DNA of 63,400 nucleotides, filler included, from Dugesia japonica (lineage: Eukaryota): the NCBI GenBank assembly GCA_001938525.1. It is 6 parts of 6 records of this genome, joined end to end, with 100 filler letters (N's around TTAATTAATTAA, not from the genome) between each part and the next. Parts side by side here need not be neighbours in the genome. Positions count along the whole stretch, not along the records: positions 29,305 to 42,714 come from MQRL01613062.1; 5 more parts are not named here. The stretch is one strand, 5' to 3'. The first letter of the stretch is position 1; the number at the start of each line of letters is the position of its first letter. The notes under the pieces are model-generated. The model saw nothing but the letters and a program-made list of their open reading frames with translations. It did not search any database and was not told where the DNA came from. Below, in pieces: positions 2,701 to 43,129 of the stretch. Made by a program: the position numbers and the translations under genes.

Positions 2701-3099
2701 CTGAAATTTTTTATGTATTTTTTCGACCAATCAAAATGCTCAAATTTTCAGCACATTTTTTCAGTACATTTGGTAGGCAGGTGGCAATGTGCGCTAGCAT
2801 ATATCTACGTAAAACCTTTAAACAAATTTTCCAAAATTGTATAATATTTTTACGATTCATTTTTAAGTTCAATTTGTCATTTATGATAAAATTTGTTAAA
2901 GTTCAATTCGTTACTTGCGATAAAATTTGTTATTTATCATTTATTAATTTATTGTCAAATTATCGATTTTGGAACTATCAATTTAAAATTAATTATTAAA
3001 ATTAAAGGTTAATTTTATTCAATTTACTAAAAAAATTATGTAAATATTTATTTTTTTATATTACTTATGAGAAAATGTTTTATTTTTCATGATAATCTT

Positions 3100-7050: not shown

Positions 7051-7244
7051 GCAAGAGGTAAAATCGCTATATTAGCTTACGCTATACTAGCTATATGAGC
7101 TTTCGAGTAAGTAAACAATGTCAATTCAAGGTCAATTCAATAGTATACAATTTTGAAAGTCCAAAATCTAGGATAGCTGATATATTATTAAATACTTTTA
7201 CAATTATAGTTGTGTAGAACTCTTATAATATTACTCATATGTGA

Positions 7245-7400
7245 GTTCTAATAGATTTGTATAAATTAGCAAGAGTAGTCCACTGTTGGTTTGAACCAAA
7301 GTTATTTCCTGCTTTAAGACAGGTAAAATATAGACTTTTATGTGTAAATGTGTACTTAATAAAAAGAGTAATACTAAAACCTATTGGCAATGATGAATAA
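7245..7400 (+). pseudogene. TBP-like protein, C-terminal repeat fragment (second copy)
   Basis: Manual translation VLIDLYKLARVVHCWFEPKLFPALRQVKYRLLCVNVYLIKRVIL aligns with INLYTLARITKCMYEPELFP-x18-KVIILG of 29550-29795. Confidence 0.75.
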
Positions 7401-8562
7401 TTAATTTTTAAACAATTGTATTGGTGTTCGATTTGTGACCGAATGCAAACGGGTAGAATAACTGCTTCCGGAAATGCATATGTTGAATCGAGCTTGGCAT
7501 AGTTAAAACTATGTAAGCTGTTCGATAAGTTCAATTATAAACGATTTTGAACGGATGCTAACGGATTACAACTTAAAACCGGATCTAAATGGTCAAAATA
7601 ATTACTGCGCTGTACATCGTCGGAAGATGCAATGTAATGATACGCAAGGAACACAAGACTGTTACTGAAACAATGCATGAAAATAATTAATAATTATTAA
7701 TAATTTATTGATTTAAACTATTAACTTATAAAAAATTAATTAATGTCTTATTCCATATACTCTCCTCTTTGAAACTTCTATAACTTAAATACATTTGAGC
7801 ATATATATTTAGACTCTCCTGATCATTTTAGACAGCTAAAATCATTAAAATATACATATAACTCACTTTTGCAACACAAAAGTTGCATGCATGCAATACA
7901 CAAACACGTCTGAAAACTTAGACTTCCGAACTAAATTTCAAAAAACTCCCCCCCATCTTTTGAAACCATGATTTTCAAAAATTCCCAGACATAAAAAATA
8001 CAACAAACTCAACACCATCACCTATTCCAATTCTCCTTCTTTCCAACAAACCCAAATTCCCTCAAAATCCTCCAAAAACTCAAAACACCACACTCCTTTT
8101 AATTCAAACGCACGATAACTCATCTCTGTAATCTCTAAAAACATTTTAGCTCATAGTTACATTTGTTGGAATGAAACACCTAGTATAGAAAATGAAAACA
8201 GCAATAGGTAAACTCGCAATTTGAAAGCATATCACAAGAAATGAAAACGAAGAATCCATACAAATGAAAGACACAGCTCAGTTAAAAAAGAAATAATTAA
8301 AGAGGAAACTTGATTAGGGAACTTAAACTTAGGAAATAACCAGCAAAATCTATAATTACAGCAGGAAACAACTCGAAAATAAGAAAGCCAAAGAAGAAAA
8401 GAAGTAATAAAAGCTATTAGCAGAACAAAGAAAATAATGAATAGCAATAAGTTCATTAGACAAAATTAGAAAATCAAATTGAATTAATTATTAAAGAAAG
8501 AGAAAATAAACTAAATGAATTAAATAGTGGAAGAAACGACGAAATTAAATTAATTCTAGATA

Positions 8563-18170: not shown

Positions 18171-18390
18171 GAAAACCGACAAAGTTTGCCCAGATTCGAC
18201 CTCACCGAGAAATTTTCAACGAATTTCACCTAAACTACCCAAAAGTATCAATCCCGACGAAATATTTGATCAAATTCATTAAAAACCGACAAAGTCTGCC
18301 CAGATTCGACCTCACCGAGAAATTTTCAACGAATTTCACCTAAACCACCCAAAAGTATCAATCCCGAGGAAATATTTGACCATATTCACC
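18171..18390 (+). repeat. 110-bp tandem duplication inside the right TIR arm
   Basis: AAAACCGACAAAGT... at 18172 and 18282, near-identical. Confidence 0.9.
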
Positions 18391-20651
18391 TGAACCAACA
18401 AAAAATCGACCACTTTTGACCTAACCGAGCAAAATATGGATAGAAACCACCGAAAACCAATCAAAAATTGACCTCATTCGACTTCATCGAGTTAATTCGC
18501 AACTAATAAGCCTAAAATATTTCCTAACTGGACAAAATAGCCCCTCTTAATCCTATTACATAAAATTTCATCGATGAAATTAATCTCATGACATAATTTG
18601 AGTGCAAAATATTTTCCGAAATAAATACACAGGGAAAAAACAATCTCTCTGACATAATACTACCTAATGATGCAATTTATGATGTCATTTTTAAATTCCC
18701 AACTAAATGTACTAGAATTAAATTTCAATACGTCACGAGGGGAAGCTACTGAATGTGTGCAGAGGCTGTGCGCTAGTATCTACCTATTTGAGTTTAATGC
18801 TTTATAATCTTAATAAAATAAGAATTGATTTAAATTGATTTAATTTGAATTGAGTTTCAATTAGAACTTTGTGTCTAAAATTAATTGAAAAATTCAGAAT
18901 ATTGAAATTAGAAAAAGTAATTTAGACATTAGAATTTTGAAATTTTTATTTAATAAATACAAATCAATTTATTGAAATGTAATGTACTCAAATAAATATT
19001 CTGGAATATATCAGACGACAAAAAGACTAATTTAAATAATTAGTTAATATGTTATATTTATTAATGTTTCTCAGTTTTTTATCTTCATCGTAATATAACT
19101 TCATTGTAAATTGCTGAAATTTAAAATTAAACATGAATAAATAAATATTTATGTTTATAAGAAACAAGTAAAGAAACTTTTTCCTTTTAATTTTTAGTAA
19201 AAATATAATTAGAAACGAACTAGCAATTAAGCAAAATTGGATGTCACTCAAAATCTGCTTTCATGATTGATATAAACCAACAATAGATTAAAAATCATTT
19301 GAGGAATTAAAGGCTGCATTGTTGAATATATTTATTTTTAAGTTGCTTTTTTGTAATTTAAAGAAAAAGCATCGATTATTATTCCCTTTTCTTTTGTAAT
19401 TTCCAATTTCTTTTAATTAGGTTATTTTTAATGAAATGAGAAACAAAAGTTAACATTACAATGGACACTTACATTCAATTGAAACATAAGTAAACTATTG
19501 TTACTAAGGATTGCTGCAATTATAATANNNNNNNNNNNNNNNNNNNNNNNNNNNNNNNNNNNNNNNNNNNNTTAATTAATTAANNNNNNNNNNNNNNNNN
19601 NNNNNNNNNNNNNNNNNNNNNNNNNNNATTTAATTAGGTATTAAGAAAAGAAGAAAGCATTAAAAAACTTCAATTCGATCCAAAAGTTCTTGAAAACATG
19701 TTATTTCTAATGAAAAATTTGGTTAGGTTTTTTAACTTGATCCACCAACAGCAGCTATCGAGATTTATAAGTAAGAAAAAGTGAACGTTACCAATAAATT
19801 GAACATGGACATACAATATTACATGTCCGGAGATAATTAACATAAACAGAAAAAATGTTAAAATTCAAGCTCTATCCATTGCATTTGGTAAACAAATACA
19901 ATGTCAAGTGGATAGGAAGAAAAATAGTGGTAATATATTTTTTATTTATGTAAACTTATTAATTGTTAGTTTAGATCCAGTATGCAATGTCAAACAATCA
20001 CACCAACATCTTGTTTTTTTGGTTGTAAAAGACTTTATTTGTTAAGTGTTGTAAATATTTTGTATATTTTTATGTGATGTTTTTCTTTCAATGTTATATA
20101 ATAAATCTTATTTAATCAAAGTGTTTTTTTATTTTAAACATATAATTTTAATTAAATCTTATATTTAAATAAAAAATCTCTTTTAAATTAACATCTTGAA
20201 TTGTTAGTAATATTTTTAATTCGAATACAAAATAATTTCTTTCAATATTTTCCAGCATTTCTTCTATAACAAAATCCAAATTCATTATTAATGAACATTT
20301 AAATTAATTTTGTTTATACTCAATATGCATGTGACATGTTCAAAGCATGCTTGCGTTTTGCACAATGCATGTTTGCATTAAAGAAACTTAATAAATAATA
20401 AAAAAACTTAATAAATAAAAAAAACAAATAATAATAACAACTTTTATTTAAATAAATACTTTAATATACAAATTTGATTCTAAAGAAGATTGGTTATGCG
20501 TTCACAAATGTTTTTTTGAGAAGGTTTTCTTTTTTAATCTAAGTAAAAAACAATTAAAATAACATTTAGAAACCAAATAAATAACTACCATTGTTTGATG
20601 TTTTGTTCTTGACCAGGCTAGATCGAATGAACGGTTTTATGGAAAAAAAAA

Positions 20652-22577
20652 CTATACGATACTATAGTGACCATATGGGACACTTTTAATTTTGCCTACC
20701 AATATGTGCTTATCATCTGTATTTGTTAGCGCTAATTTATTTGACTTAATGCTGTAGAGCTAATGGTTTTTAGATGTTATTCTGAATTGCTCTACTAAGA
20801 CCGATTTTTTCTCATAATAACAGTTAAGGTAAGACTGATGAGAAATTTCAGTTTTCTTCAATGTTATGCTTTTGGCTTTCATGCTGTTCTTTTCTCCGAG
20901 CAGGCTATAGGATTTTGGCCTAAAAAATACCCATTCTTGATACTTCTTACCTTTATTCTTATCTTTGAATTTCTAGCTGTTACTATAAAGGATATGATTT
21001 TTATCATAATTCGAAGTATGAAGTAACTGATCTCTCTTCATACTTGCTGTTATTTTTTCTAATTTAGTATTTTCTATTTCCAGAAAAAATACTATCGGTA
21101 TCACCGGTTACAATATTAATTTTACATTTAAATTCCTTTCATATACTTGTCCAACTCAATGTACTGCAGTTTGTACATTCTCAATTTTAAGTTATAGTTT
21201 TTAAATAATCCTTAAAAATCAAGTTCTTCTCCGATGGCATCGTAAACATTGTAGTACTTGTCTGGATCTTTTCACAAATTGGTTCATGCTTTTCCTATGC
21301 TACAACATTTTTGAATCCATTGTGACAGTTAGGACACCATTTTGATCGAATGCGAACACCCTGTCCTTTATTATTCCGGTTCATTAAGCGATTTAGATTA
21401 ATAACTGCGGTTTAATGAAATCTGTTGTTATTTTCCAGTAATAACAGATATATTTTCTCTCCATCTACCACTTTTGATCGGTGTATTATATCTGAATTTG
21501 GATGTTTCATGATTTGGATGTTTCTTCTTTATCCTCCCTTGATTCTTGATTCCATGATAGGAAAATAATGGATAGTCCTGGATTATTCTTCTCAAACTTT
21601 GGTATATCAATCAGTTTCCTTGGCATATCCTTATCATCAAAAATAAGCTCCGACATGTTTTTTTTATAAAATGGAACACGGTTTCTATGCTTTCCTCTAA
21701 CTTGATATTTTTTGGTAACCGCAGAAATACTGTTAATAAAACAGTAATTATCATCGTTCTTGATGTTCATAATTGCTTTTTTCCTTTTTAAATCTTTCGG
21801 TGTTGGAATATAACTTTTTCCCGAAAGTCGACAAATATTTGCAGCCTTTGTGATTTTGAAATTAATTTCAAGTATTCTGTTCAACATTCAACTGGAGCCT
21901 AGTTTGCTTCTTATTGTTATTTTCTCATTCAATTGGTTAATCTAATCTTCAAAAAAGTTATCAGTTGATGCAACGACTCTATTTGATATTCCACAGGTTT
22001 TAAACTCAAATTCTTCTCCATCAGTAGTTGTTGTTAATCTTTTGAACTCTAAATGTATCGCAAATTGAATTTTAACTTGCTTCATTTCTTTTATTGTCTT
22101 AAATAATTTGTTTACTTTAGCTTTGGGTAACATTATTTCATGACAATTCCAGTTTGATACATTTATTTTAAGTATTCTATGACAGCGATAAAAATCCTAT
22201 TCTATAATAACTTTATTATCTACAGTATTATTTGCTGAGCCACCAACTTGATTATTATTTTNNNNNNCTTCTACATCCATAAATTGTTGTAACATGATAT
22301 CTTCTTCAGTATTCATTATCGATCCACCAACTTGATTATTTTCCACTTCCATATCAATGAGCTCATGTAACACGATATCTTCTTCATCAAGTTCATCAAG
22401 TATTTCAAAACTGCTCCAATCATATGATTCTATTATTATTGCATCTTCTTCTTGTAAAATATTTAATGTTTCTTATTACGGTTCCAAATTGATGATTTCT
22501 TCAACATATTCAATTACTTCAACATGTTCATCTTTGATTGCTATTTCTTCAACGTCATCCTCAGTAACAATTATTTA
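20652..22577 (-). pseudogene. Protein-primed DNA polymerase B with large internal deletion (junction near 21188)
   Basis: Acidic N-terminus; GKSYIPTPKDLKRKKAIMNIKNDDNYCF; CPNC..H...C finger; then GDTDSIF, RPKSYSL, KAK, DDK, VPYGHY C-terminus; exonuclease and motifs A/B not found. Confidence 0.93.
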
Positions 22578-23790: not shown

Positions 23791-24079
23791 ATAATAAATT
23801 TGACCAAGGTTTTCAACTTTAACCAATCAAATCTAACCAATCAAATTCGAGTAAGTGTGTATTTTAAAATATTGCAGACATATTACTTTGCAGTATTTTA
23901 AATCAATTTTTAAAAAAATAAAAATATATTACGTTGTGGTATTTTAAATTAAATTAATTTTTTTGATAATAAAACGTGTCAAAATAATAATAAAAACATG
24001 TATAAATAGCATATTACTCACAATTTTTTTATTAATAAATGTTGTTATTCTATTCTTAGTTTTAATAAATAAGGAAACA

Positions 24080-24952
24080 GCATCTAGATTTTGAAATGTT
24101 GAACTCTAGCTTTTATAGCTACCATTATATTGTTCACCACTTTGATATGTAACAAGAATAAAGCTAGGTAATCGACGATTACCAAAGATTTGTTCCTTAT
24201 AAAATGATGAACTATCTTTACGAATTGCAAAGGCAACGACTTTTTGATTCTTATTGGTTAAATAGCATTTTGCTTTTTAGACCCATTTGATGAGCAATAA
24301 TCACTGAGGGTTCAACTCGTACACGTTTAACCATTAATTTTGCATCTAGTAATACATATTTATGTTGATTGGCTGCAGATTCCAAACAAATATCAGCATC
24401 TGCCTGTTTCAATCGAATATGAACATTTCCACCTAGAATTAGCTATTTCGGTTGATCCATGAAATCGAGTTGCAATGAACCGCATAGAGATAGTTGTTTT
24501 GATATTTTAATAGAATTTTTTCTATCTGCTTCTGATCCATATCCCATTGCTGCAAGACAGATATTTTTACTATCACCATTATAATTTATTATAGTTTCAA
24601 TTANTGCTTTGTGAAGATAAGATCCATTTCCACCTTCAATTTTGAAATTATTAAACGAAAAAATTACATCCTTAAAAAGCGCATGCAGCATATAATTACT
24701 AGGAACTGCATCATGAGTGTCAGTCAGAATTTTACCAGCTTTATCAACCACCTTCACGTTAATATACAATAAAGTATCATTCAAATCCAAATATTCTGTT
24801 TGAGATCCATTTATAAAAAACTCTACGTCACTCTGTGATTCAGAAATTGAATTCATAGGAAAGACATCTTCGAAATTACCACTTTCAATTTCAGCTTGAG
24901 GAGATGGTTGATCAAAAATACATATTTCAGTTTTACCACAAATTATTTTTCA
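24080..24952 (-). pseudogene. Polinton major capsid protein (double jelly roll), 3'-truncated
   Basis: CGKTEICIFDQPSPQAEIESG, VEFFINGSQTEYLDLNDTLLY, NYMLHALFKDV, LQLDFMDQPK, VKRVRVEPSVIIAH, FGNRRLPSFILV. Confidence 0.95.
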
Positions 24953-25386
24953 AATATTATTCCATGGCCTCTCATTCGTTTGTTTATACGTGATCCATGA
25001 GATTCTTTGCGTTTTCTACTATTTTACACTGTTTTGACTTGATTTAATAGCATATTAGTTATTTCAGATAGTATTTTATTAGTTATTCTTTGTGGTAATA
25101 TGTTTGCTACTTTTGGAATCATACTGGTTACTCCAATAGGTAATGATGACATAACATTTCTAAGCTAAGCTATTGCATTTGATTTCAATGTGGGTACTAT
25201 TTTTCCGTCATTAGCTAGTACATCCTGAGCTGTTGTCATACCAAAAGAACCAATACGTTTAAGAATCGGCAAAGCAAATTTATCTATTGTTCTCAACCAA
25301 CCAGATCCATACTGCTTCCCAAGAAAGTAAAGCAATTCTCCACCTGGTTGACTAGTACTATACAATGAAAAAATATTAGAATTCAT
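24947..25386 (-). pseudogene. Basic core-protein-like ORF with adenain-type GG/GxG motifs
   Basis: QPGG, QYGSGWLR, basic tail RINKRMRGHG; one internal stop at 25165; lies between minor capsid and MCP. Confidence 0.7.
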
Positions 25387-26403
25387 TATTTAGTTTTCTA
25401 AAATGTAAAGTTAAATGAGTTTTTGAATTTTTTGGAAACTTGATTATTTTTCCGTTATCATCGCGTATTTTAATTTCTTTATTGTTTATACATGATATTG
25501 TCATGGGTAAATACATTGGATTATCAACTATTATTTGTACTACTTCATCAATTTCATGTTTTTCTATCCATACTGCTTTCAATAAAGGTACACTAACATC
25601 TCCTTCAGTTATAGGTTCAACATGACTACTATAGATGAACATTTGCTGATGTAACTTCATTATTTTCGACTTGGTAATAGCTTTGAACTCGCCTTCCTTC
25701 ATATCTGCAGGAGAATATTGTTGTTTGTCTCATCCAAATGTTCTTGTCAAAACGTTATCAAATAAAAGATTTTGACATCATCTTGCAACTCTAATTAAAA
25801 ATATTTATCCGCATTTATAAAACATTTTTTAAATATTTGAGTACAATTTTCCGTCAAATATTTACTTAATTGTTCCAATTCTGATATGTATATATAATCT
25901 TTAAACAGAAAAGTATGATAATTCGCCATTGTATAAGCCACTTTAATTTTTAATTGTTGTACTTTGTCATTATTTGTAAAGTTTGTATAGATTTGACCCA
26001 ACTTTTTTGTTAATTTGTTAGATTTAAATCCTAATCCAAATGAGTGTGCGATATCTGCATCTTCAAATATGACAACATATGGAAAGTCACAATAAAATCT
26101 TATGTGATTATTTTCAAATATTTCAAAATTTTTATTTTGATCAACAAGTGTTTTTTCCTTTATATTTATTGTTACAGTTATTTCATTCAATATATTATTT
26201 GCAGTCATGTATTCGATTTTCGACTTGCAATATACCGGAAATAGTGAATATAGAAAGGTGAAGTCCATCATGGCAACTTCCCAACTACTATCCACATAAA
26301 TATGATTTTGTAGCTCGACAATGAATTTACTAGCATTATTCACCGTATGAATAAGTGGACAGTTATTACTCGGCAATAGTGTATAGAAATGACTTGATTT
26401 CAT
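25376..26403 (-). pseudogene. Polinton minor capsid (penton) protein
   Basis: FYTLLPSN...WEVAMMDFTF N-terminus; VEPITEGDVSVPLLK...NPMYLP...IRDDNGKIIKF...LTLHFRK C-terminus; internal stop. Confidence 0.92.
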
Positions 26404-26945
26404 CTGAATTTTCTTCTTGATTGACTATTTGTGATGCTAATATCCAACTTGGTTTTTCGTATCCATGCCACTTTACATAGTATTGTTTATTCTTTCCTGA
26501 TCCTTTTGGTTTGATTATTGTTTCTATTCTATATATCTCTGGTGGTGGAATGACTTGCAATTCTTGCTCATAGAATTTTCCTTGAACGATATTATCTTCA
26601 TAATCTTTAATAACATACATGACCGGATTTTGTTTCATGTTGTTTTTTGTTATTTGAAACACTTCATAACTCCAATTACTATTGAAATTCTTGATAAATG
26701 GTGAATCTGATATTTTCGAGATTCTCACATGATCCCCAACTTTAAATTTTGGTTTTTTCTTGCTTTTGAATGTTTACGTGATAATCATAACTTTAATTGA
26801 TTTTTGGTACTTACATCAACCGGTCTTGTTCCATTTGATCCAATATGATCAGAATGATTACAACTATGAATAAATTTCGCTAAAACATTTATCCAAGTCT
26901 TTTTACCAACACGTACAAAGTACTTTTTCAATGCATATCTCAATA
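26366..26945 (-). pseudogene. Polinton integrase C-terminal half with chromodomain
   Basis: KFKVGDHVRISK, WSYEVFQI, GKFYEQELQ, YRIETII...YYVKWHGYEKPSWI. Confidence 0.93.
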
Positions 26946-28690: not shown

Positions 28691-29204
28691 TTAGTAATTT
28701 TGTTTATATACTGTGATACCATTAGAGTTGAATATATCAGTTCTCACTTTATAATCATCTGGAAATTGTTGTGTAAAGTCTAGAAATAGATATCCATGTG
28801 GTTTTTCTGTGGCTTCTTGAAATGATTCAATAATAAATTGTCTGTTATTTGGATATGTTTGTCTCGCTAGAAAATCAACAATAGTTTGATCTCTAGGATT
28901 TTTGAATAAAACCAAATATTGCACGTTTTAATTACGTGTTCGATGAATACCTACTTGATGAAATCGATTTTGAGTTATAAATATTAGTCACATTACGATA
29001 TCTCGATATCTTTGTGAATAAATTATTAAAAACCTTTTCTTTGTTTGCCTCCTGATACAGATCATCAACAACAATAACATCCATCGGTTTTAATCTTTTG
29101 CTCCAATTTTAATCAAAACCATTTATGATTTTCATTTTAATATTACAAAATTCAGATTTAGTCAACCCATGCTTCTCTTCAGAACCTCTATGTCAGTATA
29201 TTTT
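28691..29204 (-). pseudogene. A32-like genome-packaging ATPase, 5' end cut by contig end
   Basis: VIVVDDLYQEAN (Walker B), ITQNRFHQ, YLVLFKNPRD, KPHGYLFLDF. Confidence 0.93.
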
Positions 29205-29549
29205 NNNNNNNNNNNNNNNNNNNNNNNNNNNNNNNNNNNNNNNNNNNNTTAATTAATTAANNNNNNNNNNNNNNNNNNNNNNNNNNNNNNNNNNNNNNNN
29301 NNNNGTACTTGATAACTGTAATATTGAAGGATTCAAAAGATATAACAATACAATTAGCCCTATTTGGAAGATAAAAACTGTTCAAGATTTTTATTAGTAA
29401 ATGTTTTAAATCATATTTTGTTTATTTGTTTTCAATAAGTTATACACTATTTTGTTAAGTTTTATTAATGCTATAAATAAAAACACAATTCAAACTAATA
29501 AGATTTATTAAATATCACATTATTTGTTGTTTAATACAATTGTATTGAA

Positions 29550-30005
29550 CTAGTTTTGTATTTTCTCGATTAAACTGTTCAAATCTGACATTACATTATA
29601 GACTTGATTTTGATAATATAAATTCTTGAAACCAAGTATTATTACTTTTCNNNNNNNNNNNNNNNNNNNNNNNNNNNNNNNNNNNNNNNNNNNNNNNNNN
29701 NNTGGAAATAATTCGGGTTCATACATACACTTGGTTATTCTTGCTAATGTATACAAATTAATTGATTGTTTCAAATTGACTACAATAGTTAACAATTGTA
29801 ACTGAATGTTTTGAATGTCATACTGTAAATGTTTTATTTCTATTGGCTTCTTACATCTTATGATTCTACAATTACCTGATATGGAGAAAATAATCGTATA
29901 CTTTTCACTTTAATGAACGATTTATGATGGTTTACCGATAGGAAATTTCATTTTACTGGTTATTTCTTGAGATACTTGTCCTTTATAATTAATATTAGTA
30001 ATCAA
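29550..30005 (-). pseudogene. TATA-binding-protein-like gene, about 151 aa with two TBP repeats
   Basis: ITNINYKGQV...KYTIIFSISGNCRIIRCKK (repeat 1); IQLQLLTIVVNLKQSINLYTLARITKCMYEPELFP-x18-KVIILGFK (repeat 2); two in-frame stops and a 52-N gap. Confidence 0.82.
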
Positions 30006-30084
30006 TAGTATTATTAATAGCTTTCAAATATGTGCTTTGTAAATAATTATTTTAAAAAATATAAACAAGGTTTTAAATTATTAA

Positions 30085-30714
30085 TTTTTTAAAATTAAGA
30101 AATTATGCTGTATATCAAATTGTTGGTCCCATTGGTAGTGGAAGAACACTGTTTGNATGTAAATTATTGAAATCCACTTTATTTAAATCAAGATTCAATA
30201 AAATTTACTAGCATATAGGGACAGATGAATTGCAAAGATTGACTCAATCAGAGTTTTCTAATATAAAAATGACAATTATAAATGGATTTGATGATATTTG
30301 GAGCAAGAGATTGAAACCAGGTGATATAATTGTTGTTGATGATCTATACCAGGAAGCAAATAAAATGATTTTAGCAATTTATTAACAAAAATATCCAGAC
30401 ATTGTAATGTGACTGTAAGTTTCATTACTCAAAATCTATTTCATCAAGAAGGTGGTAAAAGAACTAGTAATTTAAATGTACAATAGTTGGTTTTATTTAA
30501 AAGTCTAAAAGATAAAACAGTGGTTGATTTTCTAGCAAGACATGTTTATCCTAATAATAGAAATTTGGTTATGTATTCATTCAAGGATGCAACAGTAAAT
30601 CCACACGGGTATATATTTCTTGATTTTACACAACAATGCCCAGATGAAATTAGAGTACAATCTGATATTTTTAATCAAAGTTTAATAACCGTATATAAAG
30701 AATTGAATAATTAA
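30085..30714 (+). pseudogene. A32-like genome-packaging ATPase
   Basis: IVGPIGSGRT (Walker A), IIVVDDLYQE (Walker B), SRH, ITQNLF, PHGYIFLDF; stops and a frameshift. Confidence 0.93.
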
Positions 30715-30734
30715 GGTAAATATTTGATTAAAAA

Positions 30735-31004
30735 ATGTTTGAATTTAAAAAGGTTTTAGTTGATCAGGTAAATGACGGTTGGGAAAACGAGAATAATTCT
30801 AAAATGAAAGGTAAAAGACTGTCTGTAAAGAACAGGAAAGAAACAAAGAAGAATTTAATAAAAAAGAAGACAAAGAAAAAGCATACAAAGAGGAAGCATA
30901 TAACAAAAAAACAGGTAAAGAAACAGTTGAGCAAGTTCAAAAAACTATCAAAAAACTATGGAAAGAAACTTTCAAATGTTAATGGAAAATGGATCAAGAT
31001 ATAA
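30735..31004 (+). CDS. Lysine-rich basic protein (candidate DNA-binding core protein)
   Basis: Intact 89 aa; N-terminus MFEFKKVLVD matches MAKFKKIVVD at 28671 (-), same position after the ATPase. Confidence 0.7.
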   Translation: MFEFKKVLVDQVNDGWENENNSKMKGKRLSVKNRKETKKNLIKKKTKKKHTKRKHITKKQVKKQLSKFKKLSKNYGKKLSNVNGKWIKI

Positions 31005-31303
31005 ACCATATAACTGTTTATATTTAAAAAGTAATTATGAAATTTAAACAAAGTCTTCCGTTATTTAATATATTCCTTAAGATTCCAAAAGAGTCGACAA
31101 GGAAATTATTACAGTTATTTCCAACATTTTTCATAGAGGATTTGTAAGAGATTATTGTGAATATTCTTCGTGGTAATTTAATTATAAGTAAAAAAACTAG
31201 AAGTACAGCATGATAAAAGGTCATTCCTTTGACTTGTAAATACGAAGAATAGGAAATCAATCATTGTCACGAATTTATCTCACATTTGTATCAAATTGTT
31301 GTA
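30988..31303 (+). pseudogene. Small Polinton ORF preceding the integrase
   Basis: KLLQLFPTFFIEDL*EIIVNILRGNLII resembles the E...NxLxGNV motif of a conserved small Polinton ORF. Confidence 0.55.
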
Positions 31304-32337
31304 ATGGACAAAATCAAACCAAAATTAACAGACCCGAAAAATCCAGCATGGTTCAAAGGAGTGGCGAAACTATGGAAAGCAACACACAATGCAAAAAGCG
31401 AGACGAAAAAGAGGTTATTGAACCAATTAACATACAGTCTGAACAAGCCAAAGTTGGAAAAATTCCCAACAAGACCGTATAAAACCTTTGATTTTGATGA
31501 TTCATGTCAAATGGATTTGATGGAAATGATATCTTATTCAAATATTAACAAAGGATACAAGTATATTTTGACATGTTTTGATGTATTTAGTAGATTTACA
31601 AGAGTTGTGCCGATAAAATCAAAATCTGCCAATGAAATGGAAGCTGCAGTCAAAACAATCTTTAAAGAGGGACATTCAGATAATTTACAAACTGACTTGG
31701 GAAAAGAATTTAATAATTCAAAAGTCAAGAATATTATTAATCATCTCAAAATAAGTTATTATTCTGTATTTTCACAATGCAAAGCAGCATACATTGAAAG
31801 ATTTAATTGAACATTGCGAGATGCATTGAAAAAGTACTTTGTACATACTGGTAATTAAACCTGGATACATGTTATACCGAAAGTAATAGATAGTTATAAT
31901 CATACAAGTCACAGAGGATTAAATAAGCAAGACCCGTTAATGTATCATCTGATAATAAATTATGGCTTTTAAGACAACAACCAAAAGTAATCAAGAAACC
32001 GAAATATAAAGTTGGTGATCATGTTAGAATCTCAAAGATATTCTATATATCACCATTCATCAAGACTTTCGATAGTAATTGGAGTGATGAAGTGTTTCAA
32101 ATATCAAAAATCAATACTAAGCAGAATCCAATCATGTATGTGATTAAAGATCATGAAGAAAATATTATTGTTGGAAAATTCTATGAACAAGAATTAAAAG
32201 TTATTCCCCAACCAACCGTATTTAGAATAGAAAAGATTATCAGATAAAAGAAAATTGGAAAGTATAAACAATTATATGTAAAGTGGCATGGGTATGAAAA
32301 ACCAAGTTGAATATTAGCATCTCAAGTAGTAAATTAA
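31304..32337 (+). pseudogene. Retroviral-like DDE integrase with C-terminal chromodomain
   Basis: QMDLMEM, DVFSRF, LQTDLGKEF, IERFN; KYKVGDHVRISK; LYVKWHGYEKPS; several stops. Confidence 0.96.
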
Positions 32338-32354
32338 ACAAATAAGAAGGAAAA

Positions 32355-32694
32355 AATAAGCAAAACGAATAATTTCTATATACTATTATCGAGTATTAGT
32401 TGTCCACATATTCATCCCGATAATAATGCAAGTAGATTCATTTTTGAACTTGCAAATCCTAATTACTTGAATGAACAATAAAAAGTAGCCTTGATGGACT
32501 TTACCTTTATAAATAACAAATCATACATCAAATATGTAACAGGTGATGATTATGAGAGGAATGTAGAAATCATAATCAATAACAAAGAAAAATCATTGTT
32601 GGTTCATGATGTTGGTTTTGAAATAATTGATAAAAGATCATTGTTAATCACATTAAAATATCATGATTATGTTGTAATATTTCACAATTTAAAA
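32355..32694 (+). pseudogene. Minor capsid protein N-terminus, interrupted by a hAT MITE
   Basis: FYILLSSISCPHIHPDNNASRFIFELAN...KVALMDFTF, homologous to the 26403 copy. Confidence 0.85.
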
Positions 32695-33148
32695 CAGTGT
32701 TTCTTAACTTGTTTTATGCCATGCCCCACCTAAGTTTTAAAACTTTTAATATGACCCCCGTATAACATAATATTTTTTAATTTTTCAATAAGTATCTTAG
32801 ATGATGGACTTCAAGTAGAAATAACAAGAAAGTTATTAAACAAACATAATATATTCAGGTATTCAAATCAAATTTATCTGAATGCATCTCGGCCACCTTA
32901 TAATGTCATTTCATCGCTCTTATAAACGGAGTCATTCGTTGTAAGTTACTCAGTAAAAATGGCGCAAAATATTGAAATGGAAGCCAAAAGTTAATTGCAC
33001 TCTATACTGGATGTTTACTAANNNNNNNNNNNNNNNNNNNNNNNNNNNNNNNNNNNNNNNNNNNNNNNNNNNNNNNNNNNNNNNNNNNNNNNNNNNNNNN
33101 NNNNNNNNNNNCCCCTGTGGAGTGTACGTCCCAAGTTGGGAAACACTG
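32695..33148. mobile_element. Non-autonomous hAT (Charlie-like) MITE
   Basis: TIRs CAGTGTTTCTTAACTTG / CAAGTTGGGAAACACTG; 8-bp TSD ATTTAAAA / ATTTAGAA. Confidence 0.85.
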
Positions 33149-36100
33149 ATTTAGAAAATGCCAAAGGATTTCGATAAATTTGGAGTTACTTTTGATATTT
33201 TGGAAAAATGTCACTAAATTTGGGAGGATAGTTGTACATATTCGTTAGGAAGCATTTTTCCAGAGACGATATTTTAACTTTGTAAAATCATTTTTTTATC
33301 CTGAGTAAAATAATATTAAATTTGCATTGATAGCTGACATCTGCACACAAAGCACTGAGTGCTAAAATCTTATTTTTGAGATTTTTTCATCTTAAAACCT
33401 CATTTATTTCATCGACTATCAACTTTGGTGATTTTAAGTTAACACTTTTTAAATCAGCGAAAAGTTCTCTGTCGAATAGCCAATTGTTAACCTATTTTGA
33501 AAAGAAAAACGTTTTTCAAAACATTCTGTGCAAAAATGATCGTCGTAAAATTCTCAGCAGTTTGGTATAAAAATCTTTGAAATCTGAGATATAGAACAAA
33601 TTTTTTTAAAATATTAGACAGTTCACCCAGATTTCCATAAAAATTTCATTTAAAAAATTTTAAATTTTAATTTAATTTAAACAACATGAACGGTTTGCCG
33701 GAATTCCTAGCAGGTGAAGAAGCTCCTCTAAAGTAGAAGAAATATCACGATCTGGATCTTGGACTGTGCATTTTTGTGCTGGATAATGAATATCGAACAT
33801 TAATGGATTATTTGAGGGAATGCAAGATTGATTTATTCTATTAAAATAAAACAATAAAAACTTTTGTTAAACCATATTTTTATCATTTTAATTTTTATTA
33901 GCAAATACATTTTTCTATTTAACAATATATCGTATTTAATATCCTATGTTAATAACATTGATAAACTTTGATTAGCATCTGTATATCCACAGTAATAGTC
34001 CTACAATATTATTGAAAAACATGATTAGTTATTTAAAATTTGTCAGTGACATACACAAATTTGAAATAAATAAAATATATTTTATTTATTCCATCGCTTC
34101 CAGAAAGATTATTTTTCACCACGAATTGTCCACGATGAATTGCCCTAGAACACTTGAGACCTTGTTAAGTCTAAGTGACGGGGCCCTAATTATCTCACAA
34201 TTAACTTCTGATTGCTTAAATGTCGTCAGAAGATAATTTTAGCAAACCAAAACTATCCAGGGGGGTGTAAGGTCTCATTTTAAAGGAAGTCAAAGATAAA
34301 TTGATTCCAGAAACGGATGCCCTAAAGCAGATAAAGACAAAGATGGTTGTTCAAAATTGACTAATGAAGGAGCGCGAGATAAACTTAATGATGACTGCTT
34401 TATCCTCACAGATCTAGTCAAATTTAATGCAGACTGGGAAGCAGCATATATAAGTAATATATAACTAAGTTCATCATATATAAATTTACTTAATTTAGTT
34501 AACCACTCAAAAGTGGCGCTCTATTTATTTTATAAAGCTCATTATCCGTTGCTACATGCTCGGGAATTTTGATTGTTATATGCTTCGTTTCAAAAATATA
34601 GAAGTGTCTTTTCATTAATTAATCACATTAATATTTTATGTGATAACATTTTTTTGGAAGTGGTGCTCCATTAATTTGATGTGTGAAGTTAGTTCAATAA
34701 TATTATATATTACACATGTCGTGTGAAGTCGACCAATGATATATAAAATTAAATTAGAGTAATAAATGTAACACCCACACACACCAATAATTAATTATTT
34801 CAATAAACACTTTTCGAAAGTGACGCCTGTGCCTTAGTTAACACTTTACTGTTAGTGGTGCTTACGCTTCATTAATTTAATATGATAACAGTTTACAGGA
34901 AATGGAGCTCATGCTTCATTAATTTAATGTGAAGTTAATGAAGCGTGAATGACATATTACTATGTTCCAGGACACCCTTAACTACCTACTCTCATATGCA
35001 TTTATACATTTAAAAATTGTCAACTTGCTTTTGAATGACTTTAATTGATTTCTCAAAAGTTGTTGTTCATTTGAAACATTTATGTCTTTAATAGTCATTT
35101 TCTTATTTTTTGATAAATTCAATTTTCTGATTATCTAGCTCAGTGATTCTTAACTTTTTTCAGATAGCGGCACCTTTGCGGAAATTTGAAAAATTTTGTG
35201 CATCCAACACTTATTATAATAAGTTTTCAGCGATGAAAATTAACAAAAATAAGCTCAATACTTAATGAAAACCTTTTGATAACATATATTTACGAGAAAT
35301 TTGAGCTCGACGCATTTTGCATATCTCCTTAGTATTATGTCCCACATTTGACAAACATACTCTCAACTCATTATCGATTGACTTCAATTTGTCTTTTTAA
35401 AATTATAAAACTACCAGGCCTTCAAATATTTACGGCAGCCCAAGTTGAGAACCACATATCTAGTTGTTTGTGAAGTTGTTTTGCACTGTATTAAACAACA
35501 TAATCAATTTTCATAAGTTTTAAAATGCAGTATTAACAATTTGTTGAAAATAATTCAACATGAGCAATGAATAATATTTATCAACATTTATAATTCTAGC
35601 AAAATAATCAAATTTTAAATAAAAAAAAATTAACAAGTTCCATGTAATTTATTATAATGCGAATTTGAGCCGGACTAACGAAGGATAGAATTCAACTGAA
35701 TACATTAAAGTAAAAACTCAATTGTATTACATTAATATACAAACTTAAAGAATAATAAAAGCTTATGAAACAGATATTTCAATTTTAATGATAAATAACA
35801 TCAATGCAAAAATCCAATGTGAGTAGCACCTAATTTAAACACCAAAATTGCATATAATATACAAAGATGAAAATAGCTTTAATTAAATATGAATAAAATC
35901 GAACAATCACAAACAAAACAATAGGAAGCTTAAAATACGAACCAAATACAACTTCAAACTAAATAATAAATAAAATCCATGGAAACCTACACATATCTAA
36001 AGATTTTACACAAATCACAACTTTAATCGTCAGACAAGTGTTATTATGTGCAAAGGCACACAATTAGATAAATATTATAAACAGGTTAACCACCATTCGG

Positions 36101-39100
36101 AAAAATTCTAACACAAAATAAACTTCATTCAGCCGATGGATATAGAATACAATATGTGTTTTAATAAAAAGGCACCAACTAATACAGCAAATAGAGTACA
36201 ATAAATATACAATTCATAACTGAAACAGTTTATCACCAAACAATAACAAAATTATCACAATTGTCATTTATCAATAAATGTGGGACATTTTAGGAACAAA
36301 ATTCTTAACCATCTAATACTAAATTCATAACATCCTAAAGAGGCAAATAACAATAANNNNNNNNNNNNNNNNNNNNNNNNNNNNNNNNNNNNNNNNNNNN
36401 NNNNNNNNNNNATAATAATAATCATGAAAAACAATGCATTTGATTGATACGTCATAATAAGCAATGCTGAAATGAAAGAGTGTTGAGATATTATGTACAA
36501 ATAGAAAGCAGTCATGAGTGTTGTGTAGTCGTCGAGCTTTGTCGCTAACAAATAATATAATGAATTGGACTATTTACAGAAATCAAATGAAAACCTAAAA
36601 CATGTAAATACACACACGCACGCACACACTACAGGCACAATTTAGCAATAATAAAATAAAAATCGTAACACACGTTCACACGCGGACTCATCGAAAATAA
36701 AAGTGATTTAATAATAATAATAATTAATATTTGCTAAACCATAATAATCAATTTACTTATAAGTGAGCCGTATATATAAAATGCACATAAATCAGTCAAT
36801 AATCTTATTTAACAATTATTATGAATTAAAATAAAATTGATTGTGTAACACAACACCAACAAGGAAGAAAGAATTGATAAAATCACAGCATTGTTACAAT
36901 ATTTTACTAAATTTAGATTGGTGTCAGTAAAGGAGGTATAATTGCCCAAGAATTATTATCGTGCATCGAATATACATTAGATAATAATTTTCATAGCACT
37001 ATGTACAATGACATCATCATTAACAAATTCCCTGCTGCATAGGCGGCATAATATGTTGTAAAGCAACACTTGATCTAATTAATAAGTTACGTTTAAAAAT
37101 GATAAAAAAATTAAATAATGAACCTAATAAATGAGTTATGATTGTTGAACTGACTCATAATTAATCGAGGCTTCCCAGGTTCAATATTATAATACGACTG
37201 TACTAGAGCATGAATTTTCACTGAAATAAAATAAGAGATAATAATTGTTATATGAAATCAGTTCACGTGACATGGNTTAAAAATAAACAAATTTAATATT
37301 GAATAAATGCATAAAAATATAAAATATCAACTAAAATACTTTGATATTTCTATAATGATAATATAACTTTAAAAACAATAACTCTAAAATTAAATTTTAT
37401 CCATCTTGGAAATTATTCTTATCCAAATCATTAAAACATAATTATTTTGTATAACTAGTGAATGCAAAAAATATTTCAAGCATTTATATGTGAAATACAA
37501 CAGTGGAAATAGTTAATATACACTTTCTATTTCCGAAGCTCAAAACAGCCCTTAAGGAAAGGCGTTTTGATAAAATTAAATCCAAAATAGGACTAATATG
37601 ACGCCTTCCAACGGTTGTATGAATGATGCAAGATATGTAGAGATGGAAAGGACAGTAAAAAATAAAATTTGTTTGTATCATGATGTTTTATTTCTATAAG
37701 ATAAGTCCTGAAATCTTTTTAATACACCAATTAATAATTATTATTTAACTAATTAATTATTATTAATCAACTTTTAATCTTATTTCAATAATCTTATTTT
37801 TAATCTAAAACTTCACAACAAATTCGTTTGTAATAAGAATTTTCATTACAAAAAATTTTAAACAAGCAAAAATCAGAATTGCTGTTCTTCATAACAAATT
37901 TGTTTTAAAAAATATATTAAATAAACGCAACTTAGTTTTACAAACTTAAATCATAGAGTGGAGATAATGGGAATTCATTTCAAAATGAAACTATAGTTGC
38001 AACTTAATCGTCGGTCCCAAAAATTGGATACTGGCCATTAAGAGCACAATAATTAATTCGCTTTTTTATTCTTGATTGAATAAAATATGAACCTGTTAAT
38101 CATAAAAAACCTGAATTGGTTACATAAATAAAAACAGAACTGTTAAATTGCAATGTTAGATGTTTGACCTATTATTGAAAATGTTATTTAATTATGACGA
38201 AACCCTAAAACAAGATGTAAAGTAGAAAAATTTCATTTGAAATTACTTCGAAATATAGAAATTATTATTAGGTAATTTATAATTACTTGTAAAATATTTT
38301 TTTAATATTTAACCGAATATGATTTAACTGAAAAAATAGCTTCGATCAAATTAAATTGTTATTTTATAGATATTCNNNNNNNNNNNNNNNNNNNNNNNNN
38401 NNAATAAAATAGAACTTTAAATCTATTAAAATTGCGTACAATTTTTTATATTTTAAAGTAAGCTTTTTAGTATATTGATTGCCCATTACAATTATACTAG
38501 AAAATAAAACGTTTACTGAAGGAGCCAACTATAAGTTTACTCATACCTTGCTGTTTACTACATCGGATATAATATTACAAATAGTTTTAGTGATATAATT
38601 TTAATTATATTATTTTACAAAACATTAGAACCAACTCATAATAAATTTTATACAAAAACTGTATTGTGACAAATATCATTATTTTTTTACAGATGTTTTA
38701 GATAAATGATTTCAAAAACCATGAAGCTACAAAATTAAATATAATNNNNNNNNNNNNNNNNNTATGTCATTGTCACCAAAAGTTTATTTTATAGCATTAG
38801 CTTATTATATTACATCCTCATCGGTGTTTAGATTTTCCTGTTTATGATCATAAATAGAAATGTTGACATTGTCGGCCATTGTAGAAGTGACAGAAATTTT
38901 GACAATACACGTTATTATTATTAAAATATAATTAAGTTTTAATATTTGCCTTTATAATTTAACTTTAATTTTTTTACGAATATCTTAATGTTCTTACATA
39001 ATTTTATAGACGGCTGGCAACCCTGGTAGAGAACCTAATAAAAAATATACTTGTCCAGTTAGCGTGTAAATAGAAATTTTTTTAAATTACATGGAATATT

Positions 39101-39871
39101 TTATGCCATCATTTTTTTATCATTTGAAATATTATATTTTATTTTAAATACTGGACTAATTTACGACAATTCCGTTTAAACACTAGCTTGCCCTCAATGA
39201 ATAATCAACGGTGTCATTATTAATACATTAATGAAATAATTATACAACTACATGCACACCATTGAATACACATACGTAATCAGCAATTCGTCAGTATTAT
39301 TAGAATTGAAGAAAATATTTTCTACCAGAGTTCTAAATGCATAAGTATCCAAACAAAATAATTTCAAATGAATCATCGATTATGAATCACAAAAATAATT
39401 TCAAAAAAAGAAATATTTTATGAAAAATACAAAATAGATTAAAATTTTAAGAACTAAAATTATGTGTCATTAAAAATTTGAAATATTAATTACCGTTTAA
39501 AATCATCCTAATCTTACTTTTGAAAAAATACTAATTTCAAACATATTTATCTAAATTGAAAAATATGTTCTATTTATAATACATTTTCTTAAGAAATTTA
39601 TTAGAAAATTATTTAATTCAAGTTTTAGAAACACTTAAGTGTCACAGTTCAACGTGTCGTTCACATCAAAATAAGAAATTTAATATATGCTGACAATGTA
39701 CAGAAATTCGTTTACCATCAATGAAAATATTAAAACTTATTTATTTTTACTGTAATTATTAATCTTTATTCTATATACAAATTTAAATAAGCAGAGGTAA
39801 TTATGACAACTAATGTTTAATGAATTAAACTATTTTAATATATACATCTAAACATTTACACACCCACACAC

Positions 39872-41033
39872 ATAGAGTGTCAGCTATTTAAGAACAAAAC
39901 TGTTTTAATTAAATATAATATTACTGGCGAAAGGAGGGTATAATTTTTATAATATTTAGTAATATAATTGTTTAAAGAACGCACTAAATTTGTTATCAAT
40001 AAAACAACCCTTAACTTCAATACGGCTTCTGAAACTACTGCATGCATTTATCCGATGGTTTTAATTAATTTTAGCTTATAGCAGCCTTGAATTCTTGGTA
40101 TTGTGAGAATGTTTGTTCGCTGTCTTCTCTACGATGCCCCAGAAGAAATAGTCCAAGGGATTCAAATCTAGTGATCTAGGTGACCATAAGTTTGGGGTGT
40201 CGTGGTCATGAAAGTTCTCCANNNNNNNNNNNNNNNNNNNNNNNNNNNNNNNNNNNNNNNNNNNNNNNTGTTGGAAAATGTATGACCTTCATAGGGCCAC
40301 TTTTTAAATCTAAGATTTCACATAGATTTTTAACACATTGGTGTCATCAGCTGCCTTCATTCTAAGTCCTTGTGGGAAAAGTACGGAGACATGACATAGC
40401 CTTCGTTATTGACAACATCCAAAACCATTAATGATATACATGACAGCCGGAACTTGAGAAGGACTGGAATAAAGCCATATATCGTTTCTTCTATTGATCT
40501 TCTTGATAAAAATTCCTCTCATCTAAAAAGAACCATGTGATATTAGGACATTCAGGATGCTTGACTTTATTCAACAAACGATTTGACCGAATTAAACGAT
40601 TTTTTCTATTTTTATCTGTCGTAAATTGTCCTGTGTTCATAACGTAAGACTTAAATCCTGAGTCACAATACATTGTACATCTGATCGTTAACTACGATAC
40701 ATGCAGTTGTTTGGAAATGTTTATCATTGATTTGCCAGGATTTTCGTTAATGATACCAAGGACTTGTTGAACAAATTCGTCATTCCTGTAAATATCTGAA
40801 CGGGGATGCTTCTTTTTAGACATAAAAGACACATTTTCACTAGAGGCCATAAGATCTTGTCTAATTTTAAACACAAAAGACCGGGAGACATTGGGAAAAT
40901 TTACAATTTTAGAATCACTTTGTTTTGCGGCTAATATAACAAGTGTTTTCTTGCATTTATAAAGCAAATGTATATATTAAAATAATATTGTACTATTTTG
41001 ATACCGAGTTTTGTTCTCAAATAGATGATGTAT
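39872..41033 (-). mobile_element. Tc1/mariner-superfamily transposon fossil (maT/DD37D-like)
   Basis: WFFLDERNFYQ, WSPRSLDLNPLDYFFWGIVE; inverted ends CTATTTAAGAACAAAA / TTTTGTTCTCAAATAG. Confidence 0.85.
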
Positions 41034-41664
41034 ACACAATTTATTTTAAACTAATTAGATACCAAGCTCCAGTGCTTTAACTCGTAAAATTGAGAGAATA
41101 TTAAGTTAAAGCACAGAGGTTGACAACCAAACTGTCGCATAATTGGTTATTCATAATTATGGATCTATATATTAATTTTAAGTAAAAGTAGGAGATTCTT
41201 AGTGATATTGCATAGAATAGTTTTGAGAGCAAAACATTTTTCATTGTTTAACGTATTAAAAAAATGTAAAATTGCCCAAAGCATTTCGTGTCGTCGAAAT
41301 TCTAAATAAAAAATAATGTTTGAATAAATTTTTATTGATTCTATTGTCGTGAAAATCTAAAATTTGAAACATCCCTCTTCAGAAATAATAAATTTTATTT
41401 TTGTAAAATTAAAATCTCCAGCATTATAATCGGTTATAAACAAAGCATTCTCTTAATGAACTCAAGGAACTTTTTCCAAAATTATAAAAACTGTTCATTT
41501 ACGTTTAAGAATAACACAGCATAATGATTGTGAAAAGTAAACCCTGTGAATTCCGTATTATAATTTAAGTATGTTTGTCAAACGCATGTACTAAAGTCAT
41601 CTAAAAAATTATTAAATTTTATTATTGGGCATCGATAATTACAGGAAAATTAAAGTAACATTTA

Positions 41665-42111
41665 CGTGTATTATATGACAACAATAACGGATTATTTACA
41701 TTTTTATGTGAAGAGTTTTTGAGNNNNNNNNNNNNNNNNNNNNNNNNNNNNNNNNNNNNNNNNNNNNNNNNNNNNNNNNNTTATGCGCATTAATCCATTA
41801 ATTAAATGAAATAATTTACTTCTAGCTTCTTCTAATGTCGTCATTTTATCGGAAATATCGGCACAAAATAAACGTCCATTAAAAACAGGTTCGAAAAAAG
41901 TTGGATTGTTGAGAAATTTTTGGTTGATTTGGCTTTGGCAATTTATCATCGTTTTATCTGTTGTAAACTGCATATTATATAAATTATTATCACCATTATT
42001 GATATTGTTTATTGAATGGGGGCAGCATGTACAGAGAAAACCGTGGAAGAGTTGACGACCTTGTGATACAAATGGACTTTGCAATGCAGTTTCAGCACTA
42101 AGCCTTTCATT
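41665..42111 (-). CDS. NLK: Nemo-like kinase, C-terminal exon (partial gene)
   Basis: After an AG acceptor: NERLSAETALQSPFVSQGRQLFHGFLCTCC...FEPV...EARSKLFHLI, matching NLK/LIT-1 KRISAKDALAHPYLDEGRLRYHTCMCKCC...DFEPV; 3' boundary uncertain (N gap). Confidence 0.8.
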
Positions 42112-43129
42112 CTAAAAACAAATAATAAAATATTGGAAAAAAGATTACTAATGGAAATATGAAAACTAAGTCAATTTTTAAGCTACTACGAATATGCATG
42201 CTGGTTTTAAATTATTTGATGATCTACTTGAAAAATAATCACTACTGGATTAAGATAAAAAATTGATAATAAAAGAGAATTCCTATCTTCTAAATATCCA
42301 TAATTTTTTTAACATTTAAATGTCACTATAGAATACATCGTCTCCTAAATTCTCAAAATAGATGTTTTCCAAAAAAAACTTTACATTCGAGATTATATTC
42401 TTTCAAGTTCTGTCAATGTCTAAAATGAAATTGAGTGTTTGTTGAAAAGTTAATTATGGGCAGAAAGAAATTTAAGATTAAGATAAGATTTGTAAATTTT
42501 CACAATCAGCAATTGTATTAATTGAACAAAAATATTTTGTTAGTAGTAGGAATTATTGATTATTTGCATATTGAAATATATTCAATACATATGTTAATAT
42601 TATAAGCGGAAATGGATAATAATATTGATATATAACCGGAAATTGCATCACTACTTTAGGTCAAAGTATAAAAATAATTGTTTCTGATATAAAATATTAA
42701 TAAATTATTTTCCTNNNNNNNNNNNNNNNNNNNNNNNNNNNNNNNNNNNNNNNNNNNNTTAATTAATTAANNNNNNNNNNNNNNNNNNNNNNNNNNNNNN
42801 NNNNNNNNNNNNNNTTTTTTGAACACAAAAATTTTTGTTTGTCTTCGAAGGCATTTGACTCCTGTGCCTGTCTTGTTAGAGCTCCCCTCGGTACGCCTAT
42901 AACATTTTTATTTATGAACAAATTAAAAAGAAACTTTTTCTAAATAAAAATAAAAAAAAGAAAGATATTGAAAAATACAGTTGCGCTGAATAGATTGAAA
43001 CATTATTCAAAATATTCTCTTTTTTACTTAAAATAATAAACAAGGTAAACTTCCATCATTACTATTTATTTTTAGAGAATTGCATTGTATATTAAAACTG
43101 TCAATGTACATTTAAGATAAGTCAGATAT

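Follow-up and report, generated by a model that had tools for sequence, protein, structure and literature searches.

A decayed gene for a compact TBP in Dugesia japonica points to a Polinton gene family with a candidate promoter box

To our knowledge, how capsid genes of Polintons are activated, and whether a helper virus is required, are unsettled questions in the field. A broken frame with TBP-like motifs among Polinton remnants of Dugesia japonica raises a related one: can such an element carry a TBP of its own, and could that protein serve as its late-promoter factor? The frame (here called mini-TBP) lies in a 63,400 nt stretch of assembly GCA_001938525.1 (the window), which is made of six record parts joined by 100-N filler; positions 29,305–42,714 are MQRL01613062.1, and adjoining parts need not be genomic neighbours. 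The features discussed below are collected in Table 1.

The preliminary description had read, through two stops, an intronless frame of about 151 amino acids related to TBP. The frame is there as described: 151 codons on the minus strand with both internal stops TAA, no intron needed to read it, and without an ATG where family members start. Its TBP relationship is borne out by its top PDB sequence match, an archaeal TBP (E 6.9e-7), and by a 150-relative profile that matches it over profile positions 3–152 (E 3e-36). Against Pfam PF00352, the search that had been recommended, the broken window frame stays under the 22.9-bit cut-off (19.5 bits, E 9e-4), whereas its nearest intact relative, P0002, clears it with 55.7 bits. 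The signature YEPELFP-x18-KVIILG noted earlier is half readable; both motifs are present, but the "x18" is a 52-base N run (29651–29702) that covers 18 mini-TBP codons and makes positions 102–119 unreadable in this copy. At 115 of the 131 readable positions (88% identity) the window copy equals P0002; both of its readable invariant positions, and two of the 18 readable near-invariant ones, carry residues other than the family's, and in a quick tree its terminal branch is 0.1 and that of P0002 is 0. It is a dead, non-functional gene copy, whose value lies in pointing to its family.

Table 1. Mini-TBP gene and surrounding Polinton features in the window (positions along the window)
Feature	Position	Strand	Remark
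Decayed mini-TBP gene	29550..30005	-	151 codons, two stops, no ATG, 18 codons unreadable
YEPELFP, second-lobe stirrup with two glutamates	29703..29723	-	Matches the TFIIB-contact signature in the available text of PMC7221094
Divergent spacer between mini-TBP and ATPase B, 83 bp	30006..30088	.	Bridged by a contig of another copy
TATAAACA box	30060..30067	+	About 30 bases ahead of the ATPase B start equivalent
Decayed A32-type packaging ATPase, copy B	30089..30714	+	Pfam Pox_A32 on relative L011
Lysine-rich ORF, copy B	30732..31004	+	Unassigned
Decayed rve integrase, copy B	31253..32331	+	rve E 6e-9
Start of post-integrase gene (PZ or penton-like), last trace of copy B	32371..32508	+	
Decayed ATPase, inverted copy A	28691..29340	-	5' end near 29340 placed by eye across N runs
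TATAAACA within the 3' end of ATPase A	28701..28708	-	"YKQ" site of relatives
Integrase C-terminal remnant with chromodomain, copy A	26423..26940	-	
PZ/penton-like and pX-like remnants, copy A	25027..26388	-	Box at 25483-25490
Putative major capsid remnant, copy A	24052..24988	-	No Pfam match; label presumed
Protein-primed PolB fragments, copy A	20658..21824	-	Pfam DNA_pol_B_2 on relative L022

The gene is flanked by two decayed Polinton copies in opposite orientation whose ATPase and integrase parts are 74–75% identical. Copy A reads toward the left (ATPase, integrase end, PZ-like, pX-like, putative capsid, PolB) and copy B toward the right (ATPase, basic ORF, integrase, start of a PZ-like gene); the names PZ/penton-like, pX-like and capsid are what we take these remnants to be. 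The earlier placement between Polinton genes stands, but the left neighbour is the ATPase of the inverted copy and not a separate "ORF X". The divergent gap of about 80 bp reported to the packaging ATPase measures 83 bp to the start equivalent of the right-hand ATPase at 30089, and toward the other side the gene is tandem to ATPase A, with about 210 bp before that downstream gene. All 30 of 30 bins of 29305–31300 are filled by DNA contigs from this organism (2,504 to 5,773 contigs per run), so the family is abundant in it. At least one piece among the 32 matches listed of about 18,000, covering 29726–30172 (447 bases, with 64 mismatches and 16 gaps), bridges the mini-TBP gene and the start of ATPase B, which places the divergent layout in at least one further copy. 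Contigs also cross the mini-TBP 3' end, and none among the same 32 listed matches (of about 18,000) spans ATPase A into TBP; the window locus may possibly be a recombinant of two subfamilies. No arms (terminal inverted repeats) bracketing copy A or copy B were recognised; both copies are decayed and truncated. The segment 29305–29435, considered as a separate small repeat, was rejected as such, being the 5' end of ATPase A with its upstream region.

Other remnants lie elsewhere in the window. A second, more decayed mini-TBP remnant occupies 6995–7430 on the plus strand (profile match 7230–7376, E 2.5e-12), and no ATPase was found beside it. A further Polinton remnant, the third, covers 1233–2416, with pieces of pX-like, putative capsid and protease genes on the minus strand; the adenovirus-type protease, at 1233–1549, is the only one within the window, and near 2284 this remnant is joined to an oppositely oriented ATPase 5' fragment that is 89% like 29305–29435. 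Host transposons are present as well: two 450-bp inverted repeats (14248–14698 and 18367–18786), separated by 3.7 kb, form a pair, and a mariner-like transposase remnant lies by itself at 40491–40976.

Relatives of the window gene are numerous. The first relative search gave 15 among 28 candidates, the profile search gave at least 120 matches, the best 120 being all of mini-TBP type by length and identity, and a representative search gave 47 clusters at E ≤1e-30 and 378 at ≤1e-10, the latter partly canonical TBPs. More than 100 relatives look intact and are 42–100% identical to P0002, and family length is 145–175 amino acids (144–173 for the 5th to 95th percentile in the 150 relatives). From the metagenomes, 168 matches were confirmed and 80 retained, 27 of them in the mini-TBP family and the others looking like cellular TBPs. 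An ATPase, putative capsid or protease gene accompanies the mini-TBP gene at 13 of these 27 loci, and the remaining 14 are contigs of 1.0–5.6 kb without those genes; one further contig, L082, was retrieved by its ATPase only and carries a mini-TBP gene directly upstream. Pfam families on carrier contigs comprise pPolB, rve integrase with chromodomain, A32 ATPase, C5 protease and PLA2 (for example Peptidase_C5 on L007, DNA_pol_B_2 on L022 and Pox_A32 on L011). A conserved ORF of 412–424 amino acids in these contigs has no Pfam match and is taken as the putative double jelly-roll major capsid gene. A Polinton lineage with its own compact TBP, as had been proposed, is well attested by the 13 loci and L082, which show a conserved Polinton gene for a compact TBP beyond the window. 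Head-to-head orientation, on the other hand, is not the family layout: among the 12 loci with both TBP and ATPase, 11 are tandem (nine of those adjacent), and L002, the sole divergent one, has three ORFs between the two genes. In two loci (L007 and L008) the mini-TBP gene is placed after capsid, protease and one further ORF.

The comparisons among copies and against other TBPs that had been called for were both made. Nei-Gojobori dN/dS is 0.095–0.20 in the five closest of 26 pairs above 60% identity, with 12 pairs saturated, and by this measure the family is under purifying selection. In a quick IQ-TREE of 81 rows, none of them identified as animal TBP or TRF2, a branch of 1.13 (SH-aLRT 99) stands between 58 family rows and 23 cellular-type rows, which places the family outside the cellular TBPs. 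An atlas query returned TBP clusters only, with taxa that rest on few members, and the TBP alignment run against viral_contigs found just one canonical-type TBP. A one-off processed host-TBP pseudogene that had landed between Polinton remnants would likewise be intronless and broken in frame, but it would not bring with it more than 100 intact-looking relatives in Polinton context, nor that branch between family and cellular TBPs, nor 88% identity to a protein whose model shares about 19–27% with solved TBPs; the family context refutes this explanation, and its probability is negligible.

Several further features of the carrier contigs deserve mention. A convergent ORF of 216–257 amino acids without a convincing Pfam family follows the TBP gene in L009, L015, L016, L020, L023 and L027, and it is possible that its product is a mini-TBP partner. 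Another conserved ORF lies just upstream of the TBP gene (L006:83-649, L007:1134-1661, L008:2913-3407, L010:3-497, L014:116-634); it has a D-x-E-like start and looks DEDD nuclease-like by eye, and the three that were scanned had no Pfam match. Genes with KilA-N plus DUF3627, a combination typical of large insect DNA viruses, are found in TBP-carrying Polinton contigs (L017:218-1219, L022:7145-8005 and L025). The TBP-ATPase spacer of L017 contains a sequence that looks tRNA-like by eye, at about 3455–3520. At L011:177-729 the TBP gene is split across two overlapping frames in an element that is otherwise open. The Polinton DNA of L082 and L083 is in contigs filed as bacterial genomes and is probably contamination of eukaryotic origin; in L083 a fragment of an ATPase adjoins an insect-like zinc-finger ORF.

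The structure model that had been suggested was made for intact P0002, and it has the two-lobed TBP fold: this predicted model (pLDDT 96) superposes on yeast TBP 66–240 over 148 of 151 residues (Z 13.2, rmsd 2.8), the next other fold reaches Z 6.8, and Foldseek concurs on TBP. The long helix between the lobes had been reported missing, and in the P0002 model there is indeed no helix of four or more residues between strands E45–51 and E65–77; it is not a general trait, because the 169-aa L022 protein retains its first-lobe helix (H63–77), so reduction has gone furthest in the clade of the window copy. Three of the four DNA-intercalating phenylalanines, whose canonical positions we take as given, are kept (F41 and F116 in all 150 relatives, F100 in 149), and the one before the first-lobe proline is absent. 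Other DNA-facing positions hold non-canonical residues that are nearly fixed among the same 150 proteins, namely N6 (146), R47 (148), M49 (150), S71 (147), R104 (143), C112 (146) and N114 (150); P101 is kept in 135. Canonical residue numbering is presumed here. The exceptions are I194, V203, L205 and P191, which follow the accessible part of PMC1636458. The TFIIB stirrup, said earlier to be kept, is indeed retained, with E96 in 143 and E98 in 149 of 150 relatives, although the first stirrup glutamate is variable in distant family members; the two were equated by motif with C.L3.2 and C.L3.4 as these appear in available portions of PMC7221094. According to the same source, the first-lobe helix (H2) bears three among the basic positions that TFIIA, TAF1, Brf1 and Mot1 use.

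The genes around mini-TBP share an upstream motif. The sequence YATAAACR occurs within 120 bases ahead of 29 of 33 ATPase, integrase, protease, PLA2 and putative virion genes (a set from 13 related contigs whose members are not independent, with four starts placed by hand, and the motif was first spotted in the very contigs used for counting), compared with 0/21 ahead of TBP genes, 0/33 in antisense, and a mean of 0.56 and maximum of 4 in shuffled controls. All 11 ATPases have it, 34–51 bases before the ATG; an unbiased 6-mer count puts ATAAAC at the top (30/33 genes), and in a narrower interval (-70 to -15) the box is found for 22/33. In L022 there are 14 box sites, all on the gene strand, where 3.2 are expected. 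The 62 plus-strand sites in the 13 loci divide into 28 outside ORFs of at least 80 amino acids and 34 in two coding frames, and where the box falls in coding DNA, the codons that spell it are chosen in 23 of 34 cases close to gene starts and in 16 of 90 elsewhere, in two reading frames. The held-out contig L082 has three box sites, all before ORFs, its ATPase site being imperfect. Across the window as a whole the box is unenriched (29 observed, 24.5 expected), and the sites at 30060, 24988, 25490 and 28708 are placed as in relatives; that at 24981–24988 sits 39 bases ahead of the 5' end of the putative capsid frame of copy A. At TBP genes the commoner features are TCAT close to the ATG (16/21 versus 3/33 of the others) and a standard TATA (9/21 versus 4/33), both being post hoc counts. 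The k-mer TTGTTTTA upstream of TBP genes was rejected as a motif; by eye it is coding sequence of the upstream gene.

Controls in the form of TBP-less Polintons were sought with alignments of ATPase, integrase and capsid, which matched nothing in viral_contigs, and with the ATPase alignment among phages, which matched nothing there; genome_contigs gave two loci, L082 with a TBP gene and L083, an uninformative fragment. The co-occurrence of box and protein rests on TBP-carrying contigs, and YATAAACR is put forward as a candidate site. Because the box is found also ahead of the integrase and of some non-virion ORFs, the label "late" is an inferred one.

The box is often located where the upstream gene ends or across its stop codon, and in L017 it directly follows the tRNA-like sequence mentioned above. 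It also presumably resembles variant poly(A) hexamers, which was counted, like its position at gene ends, for the idea that it is a 3'-end signal and that mini-TBP is a non-transcriptional DNA bender acting in replication, integration or packaging. Several TBP-ATPase spacers, however, have a separate AATAAA after the box, the box of ATPase B in the window is not preceded by any gene on its strand, and the tight spacing from box to next ATG and the kept TFIIB stirrup would be unexplained; a DNA bender beside a 3'-end signal is thus very improbable.

Mini-TBP is, on balance, probably the element's late-promoter factor, a predicted YATAAACR binder that would use host TFIIB and RNA polymerase II; the late-promoter idea was raised earlier and now gains a candidate site. 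The family, its gene context, its selection and the motif pattern are observed and the fold is predicted, and from these we infer binding, timing and partners as follows. The TBP gene, which has no box and often has TCAT or a standard TATA, would be expressed first by the host machinery. The altered DNA-facing residues would accept C at position 7, a base disfavoured there by cellular TBP, and mini-TBP is predicted to bind YATAAACR ahead of packaging, integrase and putative virion genes. The retained stirrup glutamates would then dock host TFIIB and so bring RNA polymerase II, and loss of the basic helix may free the protein from control by TFIID, TFIIA and Mot1 (as far as the available text of PMC7221094 bears on that surface).

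The residues fit the box unevenly. In the accessible part of PMC1636458 it is the first lobe of TBP, here with N6, R47 and M49, that reads the 3' half of the box with its unusual C. The same text reports that in TBPm3 changes at the positions of R104, C112 and N114 alter base 2, and that a proline at the place of P101 is said to permit only T at base 1; base 2 of the box is standard, unlike what R104, C112 and N114 lead one to expect, and base 1 allows C although P101 is kept. The second-lobe changes do not fit the box well, and this counts against mini-TBP as the late-promoter factor.

Alternatively, host TBP could read the box as a weak TATA variant, with mini-TBP acting as decoy or repressor, either by sequestering TFIIB or by shutting early or host promoters. 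The C(-25) of PDB 1qn3 is presumably box position 7. By its title, that entry is wild-type TBP crystallised on a C(-25) TATA variant, so host TBP may indeed read the box, which is only one or two positions off standard TATA and lies 34–51 bases before the ATPase ATGs; the TFIIB stirrup, being among the best-kept features, would suit a decoy. A standard box would nonetheless serve host TBP better, yet the C at position 7 is fixed across divergent elements, and TBPm3 work disfavours C in the 3' half (PMC1636458, in the part available); a plain decoy, moreover, has no need for near-invariant non-canonical DNA-facing residues in 150 relatives. We regard host TBP at the box with mini-TBP as decoy as unlikely.

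Mini-TBP might instead bind the box but work with a helper-virus polymerase or an unrecognised partner encoded by the element, not with host TFIIB and RNA polymerase II alone. In large DNA viruses the TBP is commonly partnered by a virus-encoded TFIIB (PMC7221094, available text), KSHV ORF24 requires viral partners (PMC12529657, likewise in part), and several ORFs next to mini-TBP have no Pfam family. Host-type TFIIB glutamates are kept here, however, unlike in most viral TBPs, and among the scanned ORFs of these partial contigs there is no TFIIB, VLTF or polymerase family; dependence on a helper or such a partner seems quite unlikely.

If mini-TBP is the late-promoter factor, its strongest form would be a two-step cascade run by a single protein of 150 amino acids in a broad animal Polinton lineage: a host-type promoter makes a minimal TBP without the TFIID/TFIIA/Mot1 surface but with the TFIIB hook, which alone redirects host RNA polymerase II to a private YATAAACR before virion, packaging and integrase genes. 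This full cascade is plausible but falls a little short of an even chance. Were it true, no smaller orthogonal TBP-promoter pair would be known, and the cascade would give evidence for a helper-independent late phase in Polintons. A named factor with a named 8-base site makes Polinton gene activation testable, and mini-TBP is in addition a natural TBP deletion experiment, in which parts that can be dropped are gone while the TFIIB hook stays; it could also be used as an orthogonal promoter tool.

The saddle fold of mini-TBP is common to the cellular TBPs of yeast (7o4i_O), human (1tgh_A) and archaea (1mp9), and like them it keeps both L5.1 phenylalanines, the second-lobe stirrup phenylalanine and the two stirrup glutamates; it differs from them in a core about 27 residues shorter and in at least seven DNA-facing positions with other, family-fixed residues. 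The earlier statement that no TBP is known in Polintons is too strong, since a "TBP" label for a MELD virus with adintovirus-like PolB stands in the Fig. 5 legend of PMC8502044 (Starrett et al. 2021), and its preprint likewise lists "TBP" as a gene label. This gene, known from the legend label, belongs to a Polinton-related virus and may be a member of the mini-TBP family; the accessible text of that paper was not found to describe a TBP family, structure or promoter, and the text layer of its Fig. S2 (animal adintovirus maps) has no TBP label. TBP or TATA terms are absent from the main texts, as available, of the vertebrate, nematode and coral Polinton surveys (PMC8097293, PMC10748475, PMC11131425), whose supplements may annotate it, and from those of two 2026 preprints. 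Polintons are piRNA-silenced in a planarian, according to the accessible part of PMC8532177.

Among viruses, nucleocytovirus TBPs (Heterosigma akashiwo virus TBP, ASFV B263R-like) have the TBP fold and include the best BFVD match (E 2e-8), and the named matches, at 186–506 amino acids, are longer than mini-TBP. In viral TBPs the TFIIB signature is mostly lost, adapter signatures have diverged, and a TFIIB of viral origin frequently accompanies the protein (PMC7221094, in part); unlike nucleocytoviruses, mini-TBP keeps the host-type glutamates, and no TFIIB is found among the scanned ORFs of its partial contigs. The proposed logic is the same as that of the herpesvirus mimics KSHV ORF24 and EBV BcRF1, in which host RNA polymerase II is directed to a one-base TATA variant at late genes, although the BcRF1 match to mini-TBP is weak (E 0.011). 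The herpesvirus proteins (ORF24/BcRF1/UL87) are large and multidomain, whereas mini-TBP is a bare core with its stirrup; ORF24-type mimics pre-assemble with RNA polymerase II and viral partners, and a heading in PMC12529657 (seen, as the foregoing, in its available part) describes direct binding of TFIIB as incompatible with the ORF24 model. Beside the viral TBP-like late factors already known, the Polinton genes described here represent a little-described TBP family with a candidate private promoter.
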